Shown: piece after piece, positions 26,015 through 62,276 of the stretch
Layout of the letters: the number at the start of each line of letters is the position of its first letter
How positions within the stretch are numbered: the first letter of the stretch is position 1
Origin: a virus
Lineage: Duplodnaviria; Heunggongvirae; Uroviricota; Caudoviricetes
Virus record (IMG/VR): IMGVR_UViG_3300008114_000011
Reading direction: 5' to 3' (one strand)
DNA length: 64,000 nt
Translations under genes and position numbers: made by a program
Notes under the pieces: generated by a model
Databases searched by the model: none
What the model saw: only the letters and a program-made list of their open reading frames with translations
Told to the model about the DNA's origin: nothing

Positions 26015-26084
26015 AGGTGGGTAGCTCAACTGGAAAGAGCCTCTCATTAAGAGAGAGATTAAGGTTCGAATCCTGTCCCTTCTG
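26015..26084 (+). tRNA. tRNA-like element (type I size, loop ATTAAGA, possible UAA anticodon) with weak T stem
   Basis: D arm GCTC-AACTGGAAA-GAGC. Anticodon arm CTCTC-ATTAAGA-GAGAG. GGTTCGAATCC T-loop with only 3 T-stem pairs. Acceptor AGGTGGG/CCCTTCT has 1 mismatch. The helix extends 7 more bp (26008..26014 with 26084..26090). Confidence 0.45.
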
Positions 26085-29969: not shown

Positions 29970-30770
29970 ATGAAAAAGACAAATTATTACGAAATTTGTA
30001 ATCAAAAATTGAAGTATTTAAACTATTCAGATAGGACTATCAAGTCCTATCTTTATTATATTAATCAATTTTTAGAAAATACTAAAATACCACCAACCAG
30101 ATTAACAGCAACAGATTTCCAACAATATCTCAATAATTACAATTTTACCTCCACCTCACAACAAAATCAAGTCATAAACTCAATAAGATTCCTATACAAA
30201 GAATCACTTAATAAAAAATATGATAAGGTTGATTTTAAAAGACCTAGATCTGAAAAGAAACTACCAAAAGTAATTGATGGCGATTATATCAAATCTAAAC
30301 TTTCTAAAATAGAAAACCTTAAGCATAAAACTATACTTACTTTAACCTATTCAGTTGGTTTAAGAGTTTCCGAAATAATAAATCTTAAAATAGAAGATAT
30401 TGACTCCAAAAGAATGATTATTCATATTAAAAATGCTAAAGGTAAAAAAGATAGAATTGTACCACTTTCAGAAAACGTACAAAATCTAATAAAAATATAT
30501 TCAGAAAAATATACACCAAAAGAATATCTTTTTAATGGTCAATCCACAAACAAATATTCAATACAATCCTGTCAAAATATCTATAAAAAATATATTGATG
30601 AAAATTCATCTATACATACCCTCAGACACTCAGCCTTTACCAACCTCTTAGAAAATGGAACAGATCTAAGAATAATACAGAAAATAGCAGGTCACTCATC
30701 CACCAAAACAACAGAGATATATACACACGTTTCTAATCAACTTTTAAATAAAGTTAATCTACCAATTTAA
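29970..30770 (+). CDS. tyrosine recombinase, IntI/XerC/XerD-like (short, 266 aa)
   Basis: N-terminal SAM-like pattern LKYLNYSDRTIKSYLYYINQF; GLRVSEIINLK; AKGKKDRIVPLS; HTLRHSAFTNLLENGTDLRIIQKIAGHSSTKTTEIYTHV (R..HxxR..Y catalytic pattern). Confidence 0.85.
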   Translation: MKKTNYYEICNQKLKYLNYSDRTIKSYLYYINQFLENTKIPPTRLTATDFQQYLNNYNFTSTSQQNQVINSIRFLYKESLNKKYDKVDFKRPRSEKKLPKVIDGDYIKSKLSKIENLKHKTILTLTYSVGLRVSEIINLKIEDIDSKRMIIHIKNAKGKKDRIVPLSENVQNLIKIYSEKYTPKEYLFNGQSTNKYSIQSCQNIYKKYIDENSSIHTLRHSAFTNLLENGTDLRIIQKIAGHSSTKTTEIYTHVSNQLLNKVNLPI

Positions 30771-33172: not shown

Positions 33173-33889
33173 ATGAGAAATAATTTAGTAGAGATATTTC
33201 ACGATACTCAAATCAAGTCCGTGAAGTTTAATGATGGTGTTACAACACAACATTCAAATAATGAGATAGTTGGACCTTATTTATCAGTTTATAAAGGTAA
33301 TGTTAAGGTCGTTAATTTAGATACGGTATCTGCTCTTGTAGAGTTATCTAAGTCTGGTAAAACTTGTGGCTTGAATATGGCTTCGTATAAGAAACCGGGT
33401 GGTGGAGTTCGTAATGGAGCCAGAGCTCAAGAAGAATGTTTATTTAGATGTTCTAACTTAATCAATTCAATTGTAGAAGATTTTTATCCATTAGAAGATG
33501 GTACTTGTCTTTATACATCAGATGCTACATTCTTTAAAGATAAGGATTATAATGATATGGAACCGGTTGAGTGTGATATTATTACGATAGCTGCTATAAA
33601 CTTAAACAGTCGTAGTTATGATAAAGAGACTTATGAAGAGATTACACTCCAAAAGATAAGATTGATGCTTACTATCCCATCTAAACATGGTGTTGAGAAC
33701 TTGGTTTTGGGAGCTTTTGGTTGTGGTGTTTTTGGGAATGATCCCCATGTGATGTCAGAATTATTTAGAAAGGTTTTAGTTGAAGAAGGTTATTCATCTT
33801 TATATAAAGAGGTTGTTTTTGCTGTTATAAACGATCATAATTCTGTTGGTAATAATTATAGTGTGTTTTCTGATAAATTCTACTCTTAA
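33173..33889 (+). CDS. macrodomain protein, microbial PARG-like (TIGR02452/DUF2263-type)
   Basis: LNMASYKKPGGGVRNGARAQEECLFRCSNL and LVLGAFGCGVFGNDP signature blocks. Confidence 0.7.
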   Translation: MRNNLVEIFHDTQIKSVKFNDGVTTQHSNNEIVGPYLSVYKGNVKVVNLDTVSALVELSKSGKTCGLNMASYKKPGGGVRNGARAQEECLFRCSNLINSIVEDFYPLEDGTCLYTSDATFFKDKDYNDMEPVECDIITIAAINLNSRSYDKETYEEITLQKIRLMLTIPSKHGVENLVLGAFGCGVFGNDPHVMSELFRKVLVEEGYSSLYKEVVFAVINDHNSVGNNYSVFSDKFYS

Positions 33890-46404: not shown

Positions 46405-47193
46405 ATGGGAAAACATTATTTATATAAACATATAAGAAATGATAGTAATATCATTTTCTATATTGGTATAGGGACAAAAAATAAATCTGATATAACTTAT
46501 AATAAGTATAGTAGGGCTTTTAATAAAAAAAGGAGAAATAAACATTGGTTAAATACAGTTTCTTTATTGAATGATGATTATTCAATTGAGATAGTATGTG
46601 AGACCGATGATTATGAATATGTGAAAAGTCTAGAAAAAAATCTGATTTTATTTTATGGTAGAAAGGATCTAGGTTTAGGTAATTTAGTAAATATGACAGA
46701 TGGTGGTGATGGTCAAATAAAAAGAGTTTGGAGTGAAGAGTCTAGGAAGAAGGCATCTAAATCACACATTGGTAAAGTAATTGATGGTGAGTGGAAGAAA
46801 AATTTAATAAAAGCTAGATTTGGAAATAAATCACATTCTGGTCGAACTTTTTCAGATGAACATAGAAAAAAAATATCAGAAGCAGGTAAGGGAAAAATAC
46901 CTTGGAATAAGAATAGAGAATTATCCAATGATGAGATTGAAAAAATAAAAAAGGGTATAGAAGAAAATAAAAAAATTTGTTATATTTGTAATGTTGAGTG
47001 TGACTCTGCTAATTATAATAGATGGCATGGTGATAAATGTGAGATGGGATCTATTTTAGATAGGGTTGATGAGATAAAGGATTTATTGTATAATAAAGTT
47101 CCTTTACTTAGGATTAGTAGAGTTTTAGGAATAAAGTATAAATTATTGAGAAGATTAAAAGAGTCAGTTTTATTTAAAGAAGAATTATTATGA
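46405..47193 (+). CDS. GIY-YIG homing endonuclease with NUMOD3-like repeats
   Basis: HYLYKHIRNDSNIIFYIGIGT (GIY...YIG); repeats SEESRKKASKSHIGK and SDEHRKKISEAGKGK. Confidence 0.75.
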   Translation: MGKHYLYKHIRNDSNIIFYIGIGTKNKSDITYNKYSRAFNKKRRNKHWLNTVSLLNDDYSIEIVCETDDYEYVKSLEKNLILFYGRKDLGLGNLVNMTDGGDGQIKRVWSEESRKKASKSHIGKVIDGEWKKNLIKARFGNKSHSGRTFSDEHRKKISEAGKGKIPWNKNRELSNDEIEKIKKGIEENKKICYICNVECDSANYNRWHGDKCEMGSILDRVDEIKDLLYNKVPLLRISRVLGIKYKLLRRLKESVLFKEELL

Positions 47194-47963
47194 AATATTT
47201 AAAAAAGAAATATCCGGATGGTAGCTTTTATGTTGAAGTAGAGGATTTTAGTGAACCTATAATAACCGAAAGAATAAATTCATATGAGGACCTTTTTTTC
47301 ATAAAATCCATCAAAGAGGTTTGTGATTTTAATGGAATTAAAGATGTTGAGTTATTTATACCATGTATGTTTCAACAGCAACATGACCGTAGATTTTTTG
47401 ATAATCAATCATTTGAACTAAAGATAGTTTGTGACTTTATCAACTCATGTAATTTTAGTAAAGTTTATGTTTTCCATCCACATTCTGATTCCACTCAAAT
47501 GGGATTGAATAATATTAGAGTTGTTGATAATTCTAAATTTATATCAAGTGTTTTAAGTAGAATTGATTCTAATCCAATATTATTTTCAACAGATGCTGGT
47601 TCATTTAAATGGATAAATAAATTAGTTGATAAAATAGGATTTAATGGTGATGTTTATTGTGCTAGTAAGTCTAGAGATTTAAAAACACATGATTTGAAGC
47701 AAGTTATTGATTGTTCTGATTTTGGTGGTAGAGATATATTAGTATTGGATGATTTATGTGTAAAGGGTGGTACATTTATAGGTCTATTGAATATGTTAAA
47801 GGAGAGAAATGTTGGTAAGATATACTTAGCAGTTAGTCATATGACTATTCAAGATCCAAATACAAGTCTTGAGTGTTATGATAAGATATTTACTACTAAT
47901 AGTAAGTATGACTATTATGTTCTAAATAATTTAGAATTGATTGATTATAAAAGTATTATATAA
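47190..47963 (+). CDS. prs: ribose-phosphate pyrophosphokinase (PRPP synthetase)-like protein
   Basis: LFIPCMFQQQHDRRF resembles the Prs xPYxxYxRQDR block; PRPP-binding loop DILVLDDLCVKGGTF. Confidence 0.6.
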   Translation: MKYLKKKYPDGSFYVEVEDFSEPIITERINSYEDLFFIKSIKEVCDFNGIKDVELFIPCMFQQQHDRRFFDNQSFELKIVCDFINSCNFSKVYVFHPHSDSTQMGLNNIRVVDNSKFISSVLSRIDSNPILFSTDAGSFKWINKLVDKIGFNGDVYCASKSRDLKTHDLKQVIDCSDFGGRDILVLDDLCVKGGTFIGLLNMLKERNVGKIYLAVSHMTIQDPNTSLECYDKIFTTNSKYDYYVLNNLELIDYKSII

Positions 47964-49881: not shown

Positions 49882-51462
49882 ATGAACTTTTTAGAAATTT
49901 ATTATACCGATGTGTATAAAACAGGACACAAACCAATGCTACCAGTGGGTAGTGTTTTGATGCAATCAAATTTTACACCAAGGAGTGGTAAATATAGCAA
50001 TTGTCCAAATAATGGTAAAATTGTTTCGTTTGGTCAACAAATGATGGTGAGAAAAATGAAACAAGATTGGGATGTTAACTTTTTTCAAAGACCAATTGAA
50101 GAAATCGATCAATTTGGGAAGGATTTAACAGATATGTTAATGCTGAGTGATCCTTTTGATGTTACTCACTTCAAAGAACTACATAAATTGGGATATCTTC
50201 CGATTGAGTTTAGAGCAATCACTGAAGGTGAGAGAATTCCGTATAAAATACCATTATCGACTATCGTTAATACTAAACCTTTAAATGGTCAAGTTTTTGA
50301 CTGGATAGTTAATTACTTAGAAACTATTAATTCTGCTGAATCTTGGCAAGCACCAACTTCAGCGACGCTATCATTCGCATTAAGAGAGTTATCAACAAAG
50401 TGGATCACAAAAACAGATCCGGAGAGTTTGTGGTTTGTTGACTATCAAAATCATGATTTCTCAATGAGAGGTATGGGTGGTAAATCAGCTATTGTTAATA
50501 GTGGTTTAGGATTTGCTACTTGTTCGAGAGGTTCAGATACACTACCTGTTATACCAGCTGCTAGAATGTATTATGATGAAAAAGATGTTTGTATCAACTC
50601 TGTTATCGCATCTGAACATGCTATTATGTGTTCATTGACTGGATTTTTCATTAAGACTAAAGATGGTTCTTGGGATAAGGTTGGTAACTTTGAAGTTGAG
50701 ACATTTAGGTATTTATTAAGAACTTTTCCAACTGGAATATTGTCATTAGTATCTGATACTTGGGATTTATGGAGAGTTATTACGGAGTACTGTCAAATAT
50801 TAAAAGATGAAATTTTAGCAAGAGATGGCAAACTTGTTATCCGTCCTGACTCTGGTGATCCAGTAGATATTATTTGTGGTAGCATAACTCCAGATATGTC
50901 TTCTTATAATGAAAGATACAAACAACCTCAATATAAAGGTGTTATCGAGTTATTATGGGATATCTTTGGTGGTACTGAAACATCAACCGGATATAAAAAA
51001 TTAGACTCACACATTGGTGCTATCTATGGTGACTCTATTAACTATAAGAGAGCTGAGAGTATTTATGAAAGATTATCAGCTAAAGGATTTGCAACAACAA
51101 ACATCGTTCTCGGTGTGGGATCCTATTCACTTCAGATGGTAACACGCGATACACATGGTATGGCTCAAAAAGCAACCTACATCGAAATTGAAGTTGATGG
51201 TGATGTTGAAGGTATCAACATCTTTAAAGACCCTATCACTGATGATGGTACTAAAAAATCAGCAACTGGATTACTAAAAGTAGTTAAAGTTGATGGTGAG
51301 TTTACATTAATTGATAAATGTACTTGGGATGATGTTAACTCGGAAGATAATGAGCTGAAAGTTATCTTCAAAGATGGTAAGTTCTATAACGAAACGACTT
51401 TGACCATCATACGTGGGAAGTTAGAGGATCTTGTTTCTAAAGAACAACCTGAATTAGTTTAA
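49882..51462 (+). CDS. nadV: nicotinamide phosphoribosyltransferase (NAMPT/NadV)
   Basis: 526 aa; N-term YYTDVYKTGHKPM; length and blocks SDTWDLW, IRPDSGDP, GAIYGDSI fit NAMPT. Confidence 0.8.
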   Translation: MNFLEIYYTDVYKTGHKPMLPVGSVLMQSNFTPRSGKYSNCPNNGKIVSFGQQMMVRKMKQDWDVNFFQRPIEEIDQFGKDLTDMLMLSDPFDVTHFKELHKLGYLPIEFRAITEGERIPYKIPLSTIVNTKPLNGQVFDWIVNYLETINSAESWQAPTSATLSFALRELSTKWITKTDPESLWFVDYQNHDFSMRGMGGKSAIVNSGLGFATCSRGSDTLPVIPAARMYYDEKDVCINSVIASEHAIMCSLTGFFIKTKDGSWDKVGNFEVETFRYLLRTFPTGILSLVSDTWDLWRVITEYCQILKDEILARDGKLVIRPDSGDPVDIICGSITPDMSSYNERYKQPQYKGVIELLWDIFGGTETSTGYKKLDSHIGAIYGDSINYKRAESIYERLSAKGFATTNIVLGVGSYSLQMVTRDTHGMAQKATYIEIEVDGDVEGINIFKDPITDDGTKKSATGLLKVVKVDGEFTLIDKCTWDDVNSEDNELKVIFKDGKFYNETTLTIIRGKLEDLVSKEQPELV

Positions 51463-55133: not shown

Positions 55134-55571
55134 ATGATTAATATAGGTGATAAACAAATAGAATGTTCTGTTCATGTTGTTCAGACATCAAAATTATCAA
55201 ATATAAGACGATTTGATGATACTTATGATATTTTAGGTAAGAATATACCAGGTGGTGAAAATTGTTTATTAGAGTTTCGTATTTTTGATAAAGTAGTTGC
55301 TACTTCTGACTTAGAAGATGAATACCCAAATATCGGATATGATTTTATTTGGACTTGGATTAAAAGTCCAAGTATTAGATCAGTTAAGGTTTCCTATGAT
55401 AGTGATAACAAAGTTAAAATACACAATGGTGTTGTAGTTGTTTCACCAGTTAAAAAGTTATATTCTGAAACAGATGTTATTGATATGTTATCATATGCTT
55501 TAACTAGTGATAGTAGTGAAAATATTAAAGAAAAAATAATTGAAGTGTTGGGTTGGTTTAAAACTAAATAG
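55134..55571 (+). CDS. hypothetical protein
   Basis: 145 aa ORF. Confidence 0.5.
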   Translation: MINIGDKQIECSVHVVQTSKLSNIRRFDDTYDILGKNIPGGENCLLEFRIFDKVVATSDLEDEYPNIGYDFIWTWIKSPSIRSVKVSYDSDNKVKIHNGVVVVSPVKKLYSETDVIDMLSYALTSDSSENIKEKIIEVLGWFKTK

Positions 55572-55576
55572 TTTTT

Positions 55577-56014
55577 ATGAGGAGTTGGATTTTGTTTTTG
55601 ATTTTTTTACCATTTGTTACTTTCTCTCAATGGAATTTACATGAGGAAGTAACAAGTGGTTTAGATGCTTATAGAGTTGCTGATATTAAATCAGGTAATA
55701 GTGAATTGTTATTACAAGAGTATTATGAAGATGTTATGTTTTGTTTACATGACTCTACTTTTATTTCTGATACACAGACCGTAGTTTTAGAAATAACATA
55801 TGGTTTAGAAACAAAAACTTTTATCCTAAAAGACTTAATTGTTAATGACTATACTATTATACTATCTCCTGATGTAAAAAAAGAAGAATATTTTAATTAT
55901 TTGGAATTATCAAGGTCTATTAAAATTTCTTTAGTAGGAACTTCACCAACAAAGTGTTATCAGTTTAGTACAATAGGTACTATTAATGCTTATAACTACA
56001 TTATAGATTTATAA
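55577..56014 (+). CDS. secreted hypothetical protein
   Basis: Signal-like N-term MRSWILFLIFLPFVTFSQ. Confidence 0.55.
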   Translation: MRSWILFLIFLPFVTFSQWNLHEEVTSGLDAYRVADIKSGNSELLLQEYYEDVMFCLHDSTFISDTQTVVLEITYGLETKTFILKDLIVNDYTIILSPDVKKEEYFNYLELSRSIKISLVGTSPTKCYQFSTIGTINAYNYIIDL

Positions 56015-56024
56015 ATTAAGAAAC

Positions 56025-57749
56025 ATGAAAAGAATATTATTTTTACTAACACTATTATTATCATTTAGTTCATTAGCAACTAATTATTATATTAGTTCAA
56101 CCGGAAACAATACAAACAATGGAACATCATCTATTACACCAAAATTAACATTAGCAAACGTTTTCAGCACCTATAATTTAGGTTCTAATGATACTATTTT
56201 CGTTGAAGCAGGAACTTATTCTGAGACAGGTATTACTGTTGGTACTGATGATGAAGGTTTTGTAATTTCTGGTGCGGCTTTATCATCTGGTGTACCTACA
56301 TCTATTTTTGATGCAGGTAGTACCGCAAGATGGTTATTGTTAAATAACACAAATAATGATAATATCACAATCACTAAATTAATTATAAAGGATCATAAAA
56401 ATTCTGATGGAGGTGATCCAGGAGGTGGTGGAGCAATTAAAATAATTGCTGGATGTACAGGATTTAAAGCAACTTATTGTCAGTTTGATAATTGTGATAC
56501 AAGAACTGCCTCTTTACATCACCGAGGTGGTGTTATTTATTCTGCTGAGGGAATAACCATCGATTATTGTACTTTCAAAAATTGTAATGCTGAATATTAT
56601 GGTGGTGCTATTTCAATAGAATTATCACCAACATCATCATCATCAATAAAACATTCAATTTTTTATTCAAATACCGCTACTAATTACGGAGGTGCTATAT
56701 TCTTTGGTGTTGGATCTACCTCTACTCTAACATTAGAAAACTGTTTATTTTATGAAAATAATACATCATCAGGAGAGGCTGTTATTGTTGCTATGAATAC
56801 ATATAGTACATTAAATATTATGAACTGTACTATAACTGCTAATGGTAATGCTTCTGTTGGAACTGGAGGTGTTTTGGCTTTATCATCAGCTAAAATAAAT
56901 TTAATAAATACAATTATTTATAATAATTTAGGTAATACTTTCAATGATGTTTATAATAATGCCGCTACCGTTAACATGACAAATTGTTGTTATGGAAATT
57001 CAGCTGAGATAAAATCAGCTACATCAAATACATCACCGTTAATATCAAATCCACTATTCACAAATAGTGCTAGTGATGATTATACACTTTCTGGTACATC
57101 ACCTTGTATAGATTGGGGAACAACAACCGGAGCACCAACTGATGATTTGAGACATTATAGTCGTATTGGTAATCCAGATGTTGGATGTTATGAATCAAAT
57201 GGTATTGCTTTACCAATTGAGTTGATTTACTTTAAAGTTAAATTTGAAGATGGTGTTGTTAAATTAAGATGGTCAACAGCATCAGAACACAATAATGATT
57301 ATTTCACAATTGAAAAGTCAAAAGATGGTTTAGATTATGATATAGTTACAACTCTACCAGGTGCTGGTAATTCAACTCAAAGAATAAACTATCAAGCAAT
57401 TGATCGAAATATTGAAACTGGAATAACTTACTATCGATTAAAACAAACTGATTATAATGGTGATTATAAAAGAACAGATTGGGAGTCTATATTAATTCAA
57501 TTAAATATTGAGAACTTAACGGTTTATCCAAATCCAATTACAAATGAAATAAATGTTTCTTTACATTCATCTTTTAGTAAGGTTGAAGACTTATTGATAT
57601 ATGATTTAACCGGTAAACAATTTTATAAAAAATCATTAGATTTACAATTAGGTGATAATTATTTTGATGTAGAGTTACCACAACTTTCTAAAGGTCTTTA
57701 CATACTACAAATAGGTGATAAGAAACTTAAACTTGAATATAATGATTAA
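56025..57749 (+). CDS. secreted beta-helix-like protein with T9SS C-terminal sorting domain
   Basis: Signal peptide MKRILFLLTLLLSFSSLA. Repetitive G/N/T-rich segments (GGAI.I, YGGAIS, YGGAIFF). C-term LTVYPNPITNEINVSL...DLTGKQFYKKSL...LSKGLYILQIGDKKLKLEY is typical of the Por/T9SS CTD. Confidence 0.75.
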   Translation: MKRILFLLTLLLSFSSLATNYYISSTGNNTNNGTSSITPKLTLANVFSTYNLGSNDTIFVEAGTYSETGITVGTDDEGFVISGAALSSGVPTSIFDAGSTARWLLLNNTNNDNITITKLIIKDHKNSDGGDPGGGGAIKIIAGCTGFKATYCQFDNCDTRTASLHHRGGVIYSAEGITIDYCTFKNCNAEYYGGAISIELSPTSSSSIKHSIFYSNTATNYGGAIFFGVGSTSTLTLENCLFYENNTSSGEAVIVAMNTYSTLNIMNCTITANGNASVGTGGVLALSSAKINLINTIIYNNLGNTFNDVYNNAATVNMTNCCYGNSAEIKSATSNTSPLISNPLFTNSASDDYTLSGTSPCIDWGTTTGAPTDDLRHYSRIGNPDVGCYESNGIALPIELIYFKVKFEDGVVKLRWSTASEHNNDYFTIEKSKDGLDYDIVTTLPGAGNSTQRINYQAIDRNIETGITYYRLKQTDYNGDYKRTDWESILIQLNIENLTVYPNPITNEINVSLHSSFSKVEDLLIYDLTGKQFYKKSLDLQLGDNYFDVELPQLSKGLYILQIGDKKLKLEYND

Positions 57750-58476
57750 ACAAAAATTAGACGAATACTTAGAGTTTGATTCATCTTTGTTATTTGGTGA
57801 TGATACTTTCATCACTAATGAATTAAAAGATCGTGGAATAATTTATAATAAGTTAGTTAGAGTTTTTGGTGGAGCTTTAAGAGATATTATAGCCGGTCAA
57901 AAAATCAATGATGTGGATATATTAATTGGTACTAAATCAATGAATTTTGTTGATAAAGTATTAGTTGAGAATGGATATATTTATCATGAAAATTTAGCAC
58001 CTAAAGATCTATCATCTGTTTATGATATGAATATGGTTATATCTGAACCCTATTCTTATGTTAAAGGAACTAAAGTGGTTCAACTTATAAGACCAAGAGT
58101 TATGTCTGTTGAAAGACCATCCGATGTTACTCAAGATTTATACACGCAAACGTTTATTGATTTGATTGCTAATGTTGATATTAGTTGTTGTGGTATATCT
58201 TATGATGGTAAAAACTTATATCAAAACTATCCAGGTGCTATTTCACATGCTAAACATAGAAAGTTTCTTGTAAATAACTTAGCTAAAATGTATAATCAAA
58301 AAAGAATTAGTTCTAGAAGATGGAAGCTGATAAATAGAGGTTGGGAAGAGTTGAATGGAGTTGCTGATTATAGAGATTTTAAAATAGATGCTATTTTTGA
58401 TATCGAAAATTTTGAATATATAGATGAATCAAAAACCATAAATAAAAAGAAGAATAAAGAGTTCGATTTGTGGTAA
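57742..58476 (+). CDS. nucleotidyltransferase of the CCA-adding/poly(A) polymerase family (head domain)
   Basis: VRVFGGALRDIIAGQKINDVDILIG matches the GGxVRDxLLG..x.DxD motif; ATG 57742 overlaps upstream stop. Confidence 0.65.
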   Translation: MIKQKLDEYLEFDSSLLFGDDTFITNELKDRGIIYNKLVRVFGGALRDIIAGQKINDVDILIGTKSMNFVDKVLVENGYIYHENLAPKDLSSVYDMNMVISEPYSYVKGTKVVQLIRPRVMSVERPSDVTQDLYTQTFIDLIANVDISCCGISYDGKNLYQNYPGAISHAKHRKFLVNNLAKMYNQKRISSRRWKLINRGWEELNGVADYRDFKIDAIFDIENFEYIDESKTINKKKNKEFDLW

Positions 58477-58499
58477 TAAAAATAAAAAATAAAAAATAA

Positions 58500-59033
58500 A
58501 TGAGAAAACCCTTTAAGAGAGTAGAACCAAAAAGAAAACACAAAATTAATTTAGAAATAACATCAAGTGATGTTAGATTGATTGGTAATGGAGAACCAAT
58601 CGTTATTTCTAGAAATGAAGCTATTAGAATGGCTGAAGCAGAGGAAAAAGATTTGATTATGATTAATGAAAATCAAACTCCACCTATTGTTAGAATTGAG
58701 GACTACAACAAATTTCTTTATAATCAAGAAAAGATTGAGAAAGAGAAAAAGAAAAATGCTGTTAAATCCTCTTTAAAAGAAATACAATTATCGGTTAATA
58801 TATCAGATCATGATTTAGAAACTAAATCTAAAAAAGGTAGAGAGTTTTTAAGTGACGGTGATAAAGTAAAAGTTGTTATCTCTTTAAAAGGTAGAGAGAA
58901 AGCATCTCCAGAAAGAGGTGAGTTAGTTATGTTAAAATTTGCTCAATCCGTTGAAGAGTTTGGTACACCAGAGGCACTTCCTAAATTAGAATCCGGAAAG
59001 TGGTTAATGATTTTGAAATGTAAAAAGAAATAA
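58500..59033 (+). CDS. infC: translation initiation factor IF-3
   Basis: INLEITSSDVRLIGNGEPIVISRNEAIRMAEAEEKDLIMINENQTPPIVRIEDYNKFLY...KEIQLSVNISDHDLETKSKKGREFLSDGDKVKVVISLKGRE follows the two-domain IF-3 pattern. Confidence 0.85.
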   Translation: MRKPFKRVEPKRKHKINLEITSSDVRLIGNGEPIVISRNEAIRMAEAEEKDLIMINENQTPPIVRIEDYNKFLYNQEKIEKEKKKNAVKSSLKEIQLSVNISDHDLETKSKKGREFLSDGDKVKVVISLKGREKASPERGELVMLKFAQSVEEFGTPEALPKLESGKWLMILKCKKK

Positions 59034-59136
59034 CTATCTTCACTTTATGAAGAAAACCATTCTAATATTAGGATTTTTTTTAGGAGCTATTGCCGGTATG
59101 ATAGCTTATAAATTAGAAAAACTATTCAAATGAGTA

Positions 59137-61158
59137 TTAAACCCATTTATCATTTTTTCTTTTAAGAAGTTTATCTCCTTCTAATTTATAAAACTTATAT
59201 TTTTTATCAATAGAAGTTATAACATAATATTTATCTGGTCCTAATTCCTTATATCTTTTCATATTACCAGTTACCTTAACACCATCCACTTCACCACCCA
59301 TTTGTTTGGCATAAGCCCATTTAATATAGTGTGGATCAACGTGTCTCGATCTTAATTTATCTTGTTCAATTGATGTTTCTAATGTAGATAATAAGTGAAT
59401 AAAAACTATTTCATATCCATTCTCTCTTGCTAAATCAAATATATCCTTAATGTGTTCATAACCAGTATCAGTATATTCTTTACCAGCACCGGTTGTATCA
59501 TAGATAAAGTTTTGACCAGTTTTCATAAAACCTTTCATCTTCATTAAGTTTAATTCAGACGCATTTTTTGTTCTACCACCTTCTTCTTTTTCTTTTCCTT
59601 TATAATAAACATTTGGATCTTTTGTGTAAAGAAGTGAAATATCATCAGTTGAGAAGTCTTTAATGTTTGTATTTTTTGTATGTAAATAATTATTCACAAA
59701 GTGTGAATTATGTAGTATTGTTGGTAAGTTACCACCTATGAAGTTATGATGTTTATCTAAGACTATATCATAAACATAATCATTATGTTCTATTGTTGAT
59801 ATATTAGTTATTTTATCAAAAAATAAGTTATTGTGATGATTAATATATGTTTCTGGTATATAAACATTATTCTCATTTAAAAAATTACATATTTTATTAA
59901 AACGTTTTTTCGTTATTACTCTTCTATATTTATAACTTCTAGTAAATCTATATCCAGTTTCATCTTCTGGTATAAATTCGGTAATAAAAAATAAAAAAAC
60001 AAATTTAAATAATAAGGATTTTTTATCATATATAGTCAGGGTAACAAGTGATGATTTTAATTTATTTGGAGAAATATTAAATAAATATATTAGATGTAGT
60101 AGAAAAAAAATTAAACCAATTGAAAAAACTAATACAAATATTGGTGGATTTATACCAAATGATGACATGGTGGAATTAATTTATAATAATAAATTAAACA
60201 TTAAAAGTGCATAAGATAAATCAGTAGCCATTTCATATGACGATGTGTAATATTCAACTCTATTTTCAAATACAGAACCATCACAAGATAAATAACTACC
60301 TAAGAAATGTTTTAATGATTCACTGTTTGATATTATATCATCCGGAATTCTAACTTTATGTGATTTGTTGCCAAAAATATAATCACCACATATTTCAGAA
60401 ATATTTGAAATAAAATCATATTTATCTTTTTTAAATCTTCGATTTCCTAATTTAATATCATCTGAATATTGAACACTATGTCTTATTTTTTTAGATTTTA
60501 CTGTTAATATTTTATTTTCTTTTTCGACACATTTTCTAAAATCATCTATTATATCAATATCTATATTTGTTAGTGTTAGAAATTTACTATTTTTATTTTT
60601 TATAAAATTACCATCACTTAACGAATAACCAATAATCCTTGATAATTCATTACTTATTTTTGATTTATTATTAAAAGTGTTATTTATTATTCTAGGTCTG
60701 GCTAACTTATCATCTATTGTTATTTCTGATGATTTTTTCCAAATAATATCACCGTTTTTTTCTAAAACTAATAATGGGTGTATAGGTGTAACTTTTATAT
60801 CAACACCCGTTTGTGTTTTTATATTTATTAACTTTTCTGAATAGCCTCTATATAAACTCGAAATCTCATTTTCCACAAACTCACCACTATCATTTAATGA
60901 TTTAACATATAAGTTTTTAACAGGAATATTTATTTCACCAATTTTTGATTCGGTGTTATAGTTATCTATCAATTTACCAATTTTAGTCATTTTATTATTC
61001 ACTAAAATGGGTGTATTATATTCTAAGCACTTTCCAATACCGGGAGCACCGATTAGGAAAACAGCTAATCCTTTTTCTTTATCTAATATTTCTGGAATTG
61101 GTTCATTCTTTGACCATTCTTCTTTTATGTAATTGAAAAATTCTTTTATATATCTCAT
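59137..61158 (-). pseudogene. intein-containing P-loop kinase, reading frame broken by one in-frame TAA (60181..60183)
   Basis: ORFs 60181..61158 and 59137..60168 are in the same frame. N-extein ends GAPGIGK. C-extein starts SHFVNNYL...IYDTTGAGKE (zeta/AAA_33-like kinase pattern). Confidence 0.6.
59707..61029 (-). mobile_element. class 1 intein with LAGLIDADG homing-endonuclease domain
   Basis: Block A CLEYNTPILV directly after the P-loop Lys. Block B VTPIHPLLV. LAGLIDADG motifs IIGYSLSDGNF and FLGSYLSCDGSV. Blocks F/G YVYDIVLDKHHNFIGGNLPTILHN|S. Confidence 0.8.
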
Positions 61159-62276
61159 ACTAATCTATTTATTTTAGTTTCAATTCCTTTTCTTTTCAAA
61201 AAGATGTGACCATCTCCACAAACATCACAGATTCCATTGTAACTTGAGAAACATTCACCATCACATTCATAACATTGATCATCACCACCATCCGTTTCAT
61301 GTAACCAATTACAATTCTTAGATGGTAAGTTTGATAACTTTTTACCTTTTAAGAAACAAAGTGTATCAATGAATGGATATTTATTGAAGTTTGATTTTTC
61401 TAATTTGACAGATATTTCGCCAAAAAATTCCTTATTATCATATAAAAAACAAACATTTGTTTCCGTATGACTATTCATTTTCTGTTTATATAAAAATTTA
61501 TTCTCATTAGCAAAATTTTTAAACTTTATAACATCAGAATCATTATTTACATAAACTCTATCCATAAAATATTTAGCATCACAAGGTGACTTTTTTAGTT
61601 TCCAAACTAAAGCTCGACCACAAATTTGATCAGTTTCTTTATTGTGTAGAATTAAAAGACCAACTTTATTATCATTCTCCACATATAGTTTTAATTTACC
61701 CCTAGCATCACCCATACAAGATCCTCCTAAAGTCCCATTAGTGTTTAAGTAATTAGATGTGTTATAATATTTGATAATATCATCACCTTTAACAATTTTA
61801 AACTGCCATTTATCATTTATTTCTAATGATTTATATGCGTTCACAAAGTCTTCAACATCTTTATCGGTTAAATTAAAATTAATAGATTTTGAACTTTGTA
61901 TCATAGACACAATAGATCTCAAAACTCTACCAATTTTCATTTCAGATCTCCCTAATGTGTATGGCAAATCTGGATCTTCATCATTATCCCAATCTTTAGG
62001 AACTTTATCATTCATAGTGAAACTAACCATATCAACTCGATTGGTAGTATCAAAAAAGTTTTGAGTTATTGAATCATCTTTTAATTGATGAAATGGATCT
62101 GCTTTTCTATTTAAGAATTCATCAATGATTTTAGAAATATCACCCACTCTACCAGATTGTCTAGATAATTCGGAAATCTTTCTATGAAATTCGGATGTCG
62201 AATATAAATACCCCTCTAATAAGATGACTAAATCATTATTTAATTTTTCTAAAATAAATTGGTTATACTTTCTCAT
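61155..62276 (-). CDS. paralog of 51948..53663 with a single short Cys cluster
   Basis: Shared blocks GDDIIKYY, LGGSCMGDA, VGLLILH, ICGRALVWKL, FMDRVYVNN, YPFIDTLCF, ETDGGDDQCYECDGEC. Confidence 0.7.
   Translation of the reverse strand: MRKYNQFILEKLNNDLVILLEGYLYSTSEFHRKISELSRQSGRVGDISKIIDEFLNRKADPFHQLKDDSITQNFFDTTNRVDMVSFTMNDKVPKDWDNDEDPDLPYTLGRSEMKIGRVLRSIVSMIQSSKSINFNLTDKDVEDFVNAYKSLEINDKWQFKIVKGDDIIKYYNTSNYLNTNGTLGGSCMGDARGKLKLYVENDNKVGLLILHNKETDQICGRALVWKLKKSPCDAKYFMDRVYVNNDSDVIKFKNFANENKFLYKQKMNSHTETNVCFLYDNKEFFGEISVKLEKSNFNKYPFIDTLCFLKGKKLSNLPSKNCNWLHETDGGDDQCYECDGECFSSYNGICDVCGDGHIFLKRKGIETKINRLV

Follow-up and report, generated by a model that had tools for sequence, protein, structure and literature searches.

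A divergent viral initiation factor IF-3 and a neighbouring core-only class II-type nucleotidyltransferase in DNA of a probable Bacteroidota phage

Huge and jumbo phages are already known to encode initiation factor IF-3 (PMC7162821, PMC7824862). The proteins catalogued there and in PHROG 9787 are, like the one described here, full-length two-domain factors from very large genomes, encoded alongside tRNAs and other translation genes, and they have been proposed to redirect or support host initiation. The present IF-3 comes from a stretch of metagenomic viral DNA of 64,000 nucleotides, the whole of which we refer to as the window. Its identity to the catalogued phage IF-3s is no more than 35-42%, and it falls in a separate, mostly marine metagenomic clade, with 65-94% identity within the clade and Bacteroidota-type signals. 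The order of its domains, its Lys-rich linker and the greater part of its core residues agree with bacterial IF-3 (TIGR00168; the E. coli, Thermus and Geobacillus factors; PDB 5lmn, 5me0 and 8jsg). The phage gene differs in that it starts with ATG, where a non-canonical start is common in cellular infC, lies outside a thrS-infC-rpmI-rplT operon and carries clade-specific substitutions.

The gene directly upstream encodes a putative nucleotidyltransferase (NTase), for which three kinds of described protein offer a comparison. The class II tRNA nucleotidyltransferases and poly(A) polymerase (3wfo, 4wby, 3h37, 1miv and 3aql) share with it the Pol-beta head, the GGxxRD...DxD motif, a helical neck and a conserved Arg where the spacing predicts one, but the phage protein lacks body and tail, has NVD in place of RRD, has no conserved base-selecting Asp, carries an insertion of ~18 residues in the head and scores below the Pfam gathering threshold. 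Gad2 (Gabija anti-defence 2; SPbetaL7 ORF_159, PF26128) and the short phage “PolyA_pol head” NTases are likewise phage-borne predicted NTases. In these proteins the N-terminal helix is similar and a GGA...INDVD motif is present; however, homology extends over ~41 residues only, and Gad2 lacks the RD after GG and is a 400 aa protein with an extra C-terminal half. NP_344798.1 (PDB 2la3), a stand-alone CCA-enzyme head-domain protein, is bacterial and 191 aa long, and the phage NTase adds neck-like helices to such a head. The features discussed below are as follows.

12126..12215, + strand: tRNA-like gene (Rfam RF00005, 40.3 bits), without encoded CCA
26015..26084, + strand: tRNA-Leu(UAA) gene (ARAGORN and Rfam), without encoded CCA
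56025..57749, + strand: upstream co-directional gene for a secreted beta-helix-like protein with a T9SS C-terminal sorting domain
57742..58476, + strand: stand-alone class II-type (PolyA_pol head-like) NTase catalytic core, 244 aa
57868..57918, + strand: NTase motif A, G43 G44 xx R47 D48 ... D57 x D59, with the catalytic carboxylates; invariant in 54 homologues
58477..58499, + strand: A-rich leader of 23 nt with no Shine-Dalgarno motif; its last three bases are an in-frame TAA that directly abuts the IF-3 ATG
58500..59033, + strand: phage infC, full-length IF-3 of 177 aa with ATG start (Pfam, TIGR00168, phrog_9787 and PDB chains)
58545..58748, + strand: IF-3 N-terminal domain, residues 16-83 (Pfam IF3_N, 68.8 bits against a cut-off of 26.9)
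58749..58769, + strand: Lys-rich inter-domain linker, residues 84-90, within a wider basic stretch at ~76-92
58770..59021, + strand: IF-3 C-terminal domain, residues 91-174 (Pfam IF3_C, 90.2 bits against a cut-off of 34.8)

The source of the window is most likely a very large marine phage with a Bacteroidota host. The parent contig is at least 171 kb long, relatives measure 190-690 kb, and the huge phages LR745206.1 and LR756502.1 (634-642 kb) resemble the window at the DNA and protein level. No virion hallmark gene was found among the window proteins scanned, and the designation as phage is based on the relatives, IMG/VR membership and gene content. Assignment to a Bacteroidota phage follows from the depletion of Shine-Dalgarno motifs and from the sorting domain encoded next door (Por_Secre_tail, 38.4 bits against a cut-off of 27). 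An initial annotation, made from the sequence alone, had already taken the DNA to be that of a phage and had named Bacteroidota infC for comparison; the sequence is indeed phage-like and very probably from a phage of Bacteroidota. It had also regarded IF-3 as uncommon outside very large phages. The gene is indeed rare (found in 92 of 50,697 phage records, for the most part of jumbo or huge phages), but it is not unusual here: since the parent contig and its relatives are so large, an IF-3 gene is to be expected in this lineage (PMC7162821, PMC7824862). The NTase ATG overlaps the stop of the upstream secreted-protein gene by 8 nt, and the same gene order is present in two further loci (L136 and L137). 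The surrounding 30 kb hold several anti-defence-type genes, namely PARG, an Adps/Namat-like NAD+ reconstitution pair and NUDIX, and on the other side of IF-3 lies a P-loop protein with weak polynucleotide-kinase-like similarity (phrog_505 at 30 bits). A scan for sigma-70 promoters was uninformative (34 sites against 36.6 expected). Recoding was rejected as an explanation for the in-frame stop of the window's intein gene, given that TAA is the commonest stop (99 of 142) and that the sequence downstream looks degenerate. Taken as a whole, the locus is probably best explained as part of a very large phage that encodes a viral IF-3 and, as a separate and faster-evolving gene, an NTase reduced to a head-and-neck core.

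By its sequence, the open reading frame at 58500..59033 is a bona fide full-length IF-3, as the initial annotation had proposed. IF3_N and IF3_C follow each other in the cellular order, both above their curated thresholds; the NCBIfam infC equivalog TIGR00168 is matched with 142.5 bits (cut-off 60) over model positions 2-170 of 170, and phrog_9787, “translation initiation factor”, with 143 bits. Solved IF-3 chains in the PDB align with it end to end (E-values of 4e-28 to 2e-26). The linker region reads ...QEKIEKEKKKNAVKSSLKE..., and the protein has no extensions or extra domains.

The NTase is less easily placed. Its motif A, FGGALRDIIAGQKINDVD, is an exact match to GGxxRDxxxGxxxxDxD, the head motif noticed in the initial annotation, and this is the only stretch of the protein matched by Pfam PolyA_pol, E. 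coli CCA and Gad2. The PolyA_pol match is itself below threshold (20.3 bits, cut-off 23; 29 residues matched, within residues 40-68). PolyA_pol_RNAbd gave no match, nor did any NCBIfam family at E<=0.1, the cca and pcnB models included. Profile alignment to E. coli CCA and pairwise Smith-Waterman comparison likewise aligned motif A only; a second local match proved spurious. In contrast, class II tRNA nucleotidyltransferases and poly(A) polymerase are the sole matches to the AlphaFold model of the NTase, and on the strength of this model a Pol-beta head of the class II type is a firm prediction. The structure thus sides with class II and not with the antibiotic or CBASS-type NTases, which had been named as the families that would speak against a tRNA nucleotidyltransferase. 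Antibiotic NTases, CD-NTases, MenT toxins and anti-STING NTases were each considered, and none is the closest structural or motif match; the anti-STING phage family was rejected because its motifs do not fit.

The model ends after three neck-like helices, with body and tail absent (244 aa, against 340-450 aa in the solved enzymes). Motifs B and D have no significant alignment behind them and were mapped by spacing and motif context: the putative motif B position reads N144-V145-D146 instead of RRD, with N and V invariant, and an invariant R188 stands at the spacing expected for EDxxR, with the Asp position (N185) variable. No invariant acidic residue occurs in residues 170-200. Homologues of greater length (307-362 aa) have N-terminal extensions only, without a Pfam domain, and so offer no informative fusion. 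The modelled structure therefore suggests a protein that consists of the head and neck core of a class II (CCA-adding/poly(A) polymerase-type) enzyme, which probably transfers an NTP to an RNA 3′ end or to another small substrate. The earlier assignment to the CCA-adding/poly(A)-polymerase family thus stands as far as the class II structural match goes, but the sub-gathering Pfam score and the missing cca model match do not support it.

An alternative view of the NTase, which we consider unlikely if still deserving of attention, is that it is a Gad2-type anti-defence enzyme that disarms host immunity, has nothing to do with translation and is adjacent to IF-3 by chance. Precomputed PF26128 matches are listed for the window protein (weak) and for ~40% of the listed homologues, although a separate Pfam profile search of the NTase did not recover Gad2. 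In hhalign, the probability for the validated SPbetaL7 Gad2 is slightly higher than for E. coli CCA (65.6% against 33.9%), but nothing aligns beyond Gad2 residue 70; the BLASTP match (E-value 7e-4) covers only 42 residues, and homology is limited to 41 columns at motif A. In BFVD the NTase is matched best by short podophage NTases, and some such proteins carry a Gad2-family annotation elsewhere. The NTase also evolves fast and looks as if it had been exchanged between close relatives, being 55% identical at a dS of 1.37 beside an IF-3 with 93% identity and a dS of 0.62, and the anti-defence-type genes in the 30 kb around it would be fitting company. Against this, the RD of GGxxRD is invariant in the NTase family and missing from Gad2, whose C-terminal half has no counterpart in the NTase, and two huge phages were the only ones to match when 50,697 phage records were searched with the NTase by tblastn, SPbeta-like phages being absent. 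The label would moreover predict little, since the mechanism of Gad2 itself is still unknown (PMC12904381).

We regard it as rather improbable that IF-3 and NTase form a phage translation module, in which the NTase, as a CCA-adding enzyme, would mature or repair the tRNAs that the phage encodes without CCA. CCA-adding enzymes are known from huge and jumbo phages (PMC7162821, PMC7824862), and the invariant GGxxRD...DxD motif and the distance from NVD to R188, which equals the 40 residues between RRD and EDxxR in E. coli CCA, are compatible with such an activity. The weakly polynucleotide-kinase-like P-loop neighbour may hint at RNA repair. It is also correct, as first noted, that no tRNA in the window encodes its 3′ CCA: in the two detectable tRNA-like genes the bases past the discriminator are CGA (12126..12215) and ACC (26015..26084). 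However, tRNA genes without CCA are ordinary, and the host CCA enzyme can mature them. The NTase is also missing the body and tail, the parts with which CCA enzymes hold the tRNA acceptor and T-arm (PMC3925840). Together with NVD for RRD and the unconserved base-templating Asp, this speaks against a CCA-adding identity, as do the weak PolyA_pol score and the lack of PolyA_pol_RNAbd and cca matches; CCA addition is unproven. Genomic context speaks against it too. IF-3 and NTase are indeed neighbours here, but apart from near-identical genomes, only two close relatives have them within 6 kb of each other, and this holds for none of 22 other IF-3 loci and none of 27 NTase loci. A tRNA gene lies within 6 kb of an NTase homologue at 5 of 24 loci, none of them in close relatives, and no neighbour of the NTase is conserved across 23 loci, the best family being present in 6.

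The probable role of IF-3 has to be judged against the translation signals of the window. Of 142 genes called heuristically, only 6 are preceded by a Shine-Dalgarno-like 4-mer, whereas random positions give 10.7%; none of the 142 has a strong 5-mer upstream, and the leaders are 50% A. ATGA-type overlaps of 4 nt join 23 of 120 same-strand neighbouring pairs. Both traits had been pointed out before, and an IF-3 gene was thought notable in a genome chained in this way. The latter link is disfavoured, because overexpression of IF-3 in E. coli reduces re-initiation at coupled or overlapping genes (PMC2268962), which is the opposite of what such chaining would need.

An ATG start is available in 11 of 12 loci of the clade and in 10 of 13 other IMG/VR loci. 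Among 75 GTDB genomes, infC has no ATG, GTG or TTG start at all in 37 and ATG in only 10; in E. coli the start is ATT. The organisation of cellular infC, with its AUU/AUA-type start and thrS-infC-rpmI-rplT neighbourhood, is not that of the phage gene. Because its start is AUG and not AUU or AUA, the phage gene probably escapes start-codon autoregulation, if the mechanism of E. coli is assumed to operate in the host. Every effect proposed for extra phage IF-3 is extrapolated from E. coli biochemistry. The factor would be synthesised early, from an A-rich message that starts with AUG and has no Shine-Dalgarno motif, and would dock on the platform of the host 30S subunit like cellular IF-3. There its anti-association and recycling activity may enlarge the pool of initiation-competent 30S subunits and keep start-site selection strict, which would suit a genome with AUG-started genes. 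It would do so outside the negative autoregulation through the start codon that limits cellular infC.

Conservation of residues was assessed at columns kept in at least 80% of 52 cellular IF-3s, a set drawn from a pattern-based genome scan that is biased and holds no labelled Bacteroidota infC, by comparison with 120 sequences of the phage clade. The clade retains most of these columns, and ~11 differ clade-wide. In the N-domain the equivalents of E. coli R25 and R66 are kept, and in the C-domain (E. coli numbering) K94, D106, K110, F117, L118, G121, D122, K123, K125, G132, R133, P162 and M172. Changes throughout the clade are Q33E, L51K, C65V, G71N, R129S and R168G, and G35 is variable. Since these positions are nearly invariant among the sampled cellular IF-3s, the substitutions make an altered, even antagonistic, behaviour on the ribosome possible.

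A stronger version of this idea, that the phage IF-3 is a hijacker which displaces host IF-3 and either changes the rules of start-site choice to the benefit of phage leaders or shuts down host mRNAs, seems doubtful to us. Q33 is one of the three contacts of IF-3 with the initiator-tRNA elbow (PMC9723500), two C-domain arginines are lost (R129S and R168G), the clade stands deeply apart from cellular IF-3, and the phage leaders are A-rich and lack Shine-Dalgarno motifs. Nevertheless, the cores of both domains are conserved, basic residues adjoin the sites of the lost arginines, the protein has neither extensions nor added domains, and the evidence looks alike for more of the same activity and for different rules. 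Equally hard to favour is a joint reading, in which the IF-3 clade would be specialised for the Shine-Dalgarno-independent Bacteroidota ribosome, favouring phage leaders and freed by its AUG from autoregulation, and the NTase would be a new minimal class II enzyme without tRNA-binding domains, active in trans-acting RNA 3′-end repair or as an anti-defence enzyme of a new kind.

The explanation that we prefer, a viral IF-3 kept by a very large phage, is in keeping with the evolutionary evidence, which places the protein in a viral clade long diverged from cellular infC. An exhaustive HMMER scan of 1.84 billion cluster representatives found identities of 81, 74, 59, 57, 54 ... 46%, followed by the bulk at 37-45%, and only 21 clusters at E<=1e-30. 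The nearest copy in a cellular context (P0251) is 46% identical. The clade occurs on phage contigs of 100-600 kb. Its relatives in IMG/VR lie on viral contigs of 83-436 kb, and all inspected contexts of clade members (contigs of 48-258 kb) are of the phage type, with DNA_pol_B, HNH, Phage_base_V, GIY-YIG, UvrD and ligase genes. A crude neighbour-joining tree, which carries no support values, unites the viral IF-3s in one group separate from all labelled bacteria. The dN/dS ratio against orthologues is 0.08-0.13, indicating strong purifying selection, while the NTase has a ratio of 0.27-0.31 and other neighbouring genes range over 0.16-0.72; IF-3 appears to be a predicted functional, vertically maintained phage gene. 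That it is instead host DNA, from a mis-binned bacterial contig or a recent passenger capture, is very improbable: some public “phage” IF-3 records do look contaminated by host flanks (small records with the match at the end), but here the identical protein is found on 18 contigs from several projects, with constant phage-like neighbours and on none of the 18 beside thrS, rpmI or rplT, and this context, the ceiling of ~46% identity to the cellular IF-3s found and the purifying selection within the viral clade led us to discard contamination.

For the NTase, these results define a family of core-only, uncharacterised enzymes restricted to huge phages, for which annotation as CCA-adding is unwarranted without an assay. 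Phage-encoded IF-3 has, to our knowledge, been catalogued and never characterised. The clade described here is abundant in marine metagenomes, strongly conserved and tied to hosts in which initiation is free of Shine-Dalgarno pairing, and it is therefore a reasonable candidate for viral manipulation of this kind of initiation. The AUG start of the viral genes, against the non-canonical starts of cellular infC, leads to the prediction that autoregulation has been lost.

Exactly two co-directional genes lie within 57742..59033, and they close a tightly packed string of five genes (55134..59033; gaps of 5, 10, -8 and 23 nt), whose last three members are:

56025..57749, + strand, type IX secretion system (T9SS) sorting-domain protein of 574 aa (Por_Secre_tail, 38.4 bits), just upstream of the nucleotidyltransferase gene
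57742..58476, + strand, nucleotidyltransferase (NTase) gene, 244 aa, carrying FGGALRDIIAGQKINDVD
58500..59033, + strand, IF-3 gene, 177 aa, the second of the pair

The identification of the last gene as IF-3, made initially from sequence patterns, is borne out by Pfam IF3_N (68.8 bits, residues 16-83) and IF3_C (90.2 bits, residues 91-174), by the NCBIfam infC equivalog (142.5 bits, cut-off 60), by phrog_9787 "translation initiation factor" (143 bits) and by end-to-end alignment to solved Geobacillus, Thermus and E. coli IF-3 chains (E 4e-28 to 2e-26). Integrity was assessed by aligning 120 members of its viral clade with 52 cellular IF-3s, E. coli among them, taking as conserved any column identical in 80% or more of the cellular sequences (E. 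coli numbering). Most such columns are kept in the clade, including N16, V24, R25, A42, A46, D52, L53, P62, I67, D69, Y70, K72, K79 and E83, followed by K94, D106, K110, F117, L118, G121, D122, K123, K125, G132, R133, P162 and M172. The conserved C-domain residues, on which the initial annotation had let the assignment hang, are thus mostly retained. About 11 columns are changed clade-wide, including G35, L51K, C65V, G71N, R129S and P176, as is R168G, at a column where R occurs in 63% of the cellular set. Three N-domain residues, R25, Q33 and R66, touch the initiator-tRNA elbow (PMC9723500); two are kept, and Q33 is replaced by E in 91% of the clade. The dN/dS of IF-3 against two close orthologues is 0.08-0.13, lower than that of the NTase (0.27-0.31) and of other neighbours (0.16-0.72). 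The window carries a genuine, well-conserved phage IF-3.

The same protein is encoded on 18 contigs from several projects (longest 171,766 bp), always with the same neighbours and on none of them beside thrS, rpmI or rplT. Homologues at 65-94% identity lie on contigs of 48-258 kb among DNA_pol_B, HNH, Phage_base_V, CHAP and many small unannotated ORFs, with contigs of up to 623 kb given in the search table for members of these clusters, and relatives in IMG/VR occur on viral contigs of 83-436 kb. In an exhaustive HMMER search of 1.84 billion cluster representatives, identity drops through 81, 74, 59, 57 and 54% to 46%, followed by the bulk at 37-45%. Phage-like gene context persists at 57%, 51% and 46% identity; the nearest copy in a cellular context (P0251, 46% identical) is Bacteroidota-like, judged cellular because it sits with housekeeping, outer-membrane and Peptidase_C25 genes. 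Across 185,579 species genomes, a pattern-limited scan returned no IF-3 above 46% identity. In a crude neighbour-joining tree, whose labelled bacteria do not include Bacteroidota infC, viral IF-3s form one group separate from every labelled bacterium. The identity fall-off, the phage-like contexts and the separate viral group argue against recent capture from a host, and the phage IF-3 appears to represent an old viral lineage. A phage IF-3 is indeed uncommon, as had been proposed (found in 92 of 50,697 phage records, chiefly those of jumbo Escherichia, Erwinia, Salmonella and Pectobacterium phages, of Atu_ph07 and of huge metagenomic phages; a few small records resemble host flanks). It is not unusual for a huge-phage lineage, however, since IF3 has already been reported there, together with IF1 and CCA-adding enzymes, by Al-Shayeb et al. 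(PMC7162821), and in jumbo phages by Iyer et al. (PMC7824862).

The assignment of the upstream gene to the CCA-adding/poly(A)-polymerase family is sound as to fold and unproven as to CCA addition. The head-domain motif described initially is present as FGGALRDIIAGQKINDVD, and the invariant residues include G43, G44, R47, D48, D57, D59, E102, N144, V145, D155, R188, R192 and R199. AlphaFold gives a good model (pLDDT 84.5, pTM 0.83), and in a Foldseek search of the PDB each of the 45 matches at E<0.02 is to a class II tRNA NTase or poly(A) polymerase. Scores are about 5 for antibiotic NTases and 4 for MenT; no CD-NTase is among the listed matches. BFVD viral structure models add "PolyA_pol head" proteins, short ones from phages and giant viruses (TM ~0.45-0.5). 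The modelled fold is soundly of the class II tRNA NTase/poly(A) polymerase type. However, Pfam PolyA_pol reaches 20.3 bits over 29 residues, under its cut-off of 23, no NCBIfam model matches, and at 244 aa, versus 340-450 aa for the solved class II enzymes, the protein lacks the body and tail domains that recognise the tRNA acceptor and T helices (PMC3925840). By spacing, NVD occupies the RRD position and Y-N-Q-K-R that of EDxxR, where only the Arg is conserved. The protein is an uncharacterised catalytic core, for which the CCA-adding label should not be used.

Among its 178 homologues, precomputed Pfam assignments are either blank or PF26128, Gabija anti-defence 2 (Gad2), and a Gad2-type anti-defence enzyme remains a live alternative. 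Against the validated SPbetaL7 Gad2, taken from the supplementary table of the original paper, hhalign reaches a probability of 65.6% across 41 columns, marginally above E. coli CCA (33.9%), and BLASTP an E of 7e-4 across 42 residues. Both the Gad2 and the CCA matches fall, however, on the same motif-A stretch, and Gad2 is 400 aa long and lacks the RD that is invariant in the phage family. What keeps this alternative alive is the fast evolution of the NTase and its anti-defence-like surroundings:

33173..33889, + strand, microbial-type poly(ADP-ribose) glycohydrolase (PARG) domain (PARG_cat_microb, 75 bits)
47190..47963, + strand, PRPP-synthetase-like protein (phrog_619, 148 bits), close to the next
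49882..51462, + strand, NAPRTase-family protein, 526 aa
62295..62906, - strand, NUDIX gene, near the pair

The PARG may counter ADP-ribosylation-based defence. The PRPP-synthetase-like and NAPRTase-family pair resembles Adps and Namat of the phage NAD+ reconstitution pathway NARP1. A separate feature, at 59137..61158 on the - strand, is a P-loop gene (GAPGIGK|C...) into which an intein carrying a LAGLIDADG region is inserted. It reads as two in-frame ORFs with a TAA between them (60181..60183), after which the hydrophobic sequence looks degenerate. A close relative (L136, 10624..11322, - strand) has an intein-less 232-aa version with weak matches to AAA_33 (23 bits, under the cut-off of 27) and to a PHROG polynucleotide kinase (30 bits), and the window gene may be an RNA-repair-type kinase holding a decayed or split intein.

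The order T9SS protein, NTase, IF-3 is repeated in L136 and L137, both close relatives. Farther out, 22 IF-3 loci all lack the NTase within 5-6 kb, and 27 NTase loci all lack a nearby IF-3. No other neighbour of the NTase is conserved across the 23 loci compared, and tRNA genes lie close to it in 5 of 24 loci. The L136 IF-3 is 93% identical and its NTase only 55% (dS 0.62 versus 1.37), which suggests replacement of the NTase allele between close relatives. Nothing indicates that the two proteins act jointly. Only two curated phage genomes carry the NTase, both of huge phages (634-642 kb), and about half of its IMG/VR relatives are on contigs above 200 kb (range 9-676 kb).

The window holds ~142 mostly small genes at ~90% coding density, including homing endonucleases, PARG, the PRPP-synthetase-like and NAPRTase-family pair, NUDIX and the intein, as well as:

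12126..12215, + strand, tRNA-like gene, 90 nt (Rfam, 40.3 bits; no ARAGORN match)
29970..30770, + strand, tyrosine recombinase/integrase (Phage_integrase, 120.5 bits; phrog_1, 140 bits)

The phage that carries the integrase appears to be very large, and the surplus length of the tRNA-like gene, in the anticodon and variable region, may be an intron or a long arm. Distant DNA similarity links 56000..62000 to the huge phages LR745206.1 and LR756502.1 (634-642 kb). GC is 25-34% over 2-kb windows, mostly 27-30%. As initially described, Shine-Dalgarno leaders are few (found at 6 of 142 genes, compared with 10.7% of random positions; none is a strong motif, and leaders are 50% A) and 4-nt overlaps recur (23 of 120 same-strand pairs). 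To our knowledge, T9SS is restricted to Bacteroidota and relatives; the sorting domain, GC, Shine-Dalgarno depletion and phage features, taken together, point to a Bacteroidota host. The T9SS product has a signal-peptide-like N-terminus and, kept in close relatives, looks like phage-encoded cargo for the host secretion system. The proposed tie between IF-3 and the ATGA overlaps is doubtful, because overexpressed IF-3 in E. coli markedly cuts re-initiation at a coupled gene pair, besides blocking M13 propagation (PMC2268962).

The IF-3 ATG lies directly 3' of an in-frame TAA, and the 23-nt leader before it is A-rich and lacks a Shine-Dalgarno motif. Two weak terminator-like hairpins within the coding sequence (58579..58602 and 58903..58920, + strand) are probably chance, given stems with just 3 G-C pairs; 4 such sites occur in the 4.9-kb region scanned, where 1.0 +/- 1.0 would be expected. 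Just 3' of IF-3 is a hydrophobic 28-aa ORF, MKKTILILGFFLGAIAGMIAYKLEKLFK (59047..59133, + strand), for which one identical contig has a gene call. In a comparison of loci L010-L085 with L006-L009, L088, L091-L108, L136 and L137, an ATG is present at the right place in 21 of 25 viral loci (11/12 in the clade, 10/13 elsewhere in IMG/VR), versus only 10 of 75 for cellular infC, where 37 of 75 lack all of ATG, GTG and TTG before the conserved N-terminus. The start codon of E. coli infC is ATT, and the gene autoregulates through this AUU. Because an ATG is available, the phage copies look exempt from such a brake. The phage would then add extra IF-3, free of regulation, which may keep 30S subunits free and initiation-competent and maintain strict start selection in an AUG-starting genome, where ATG is the first available start in 50 of the 58 window ORFs of at least 120 aa.
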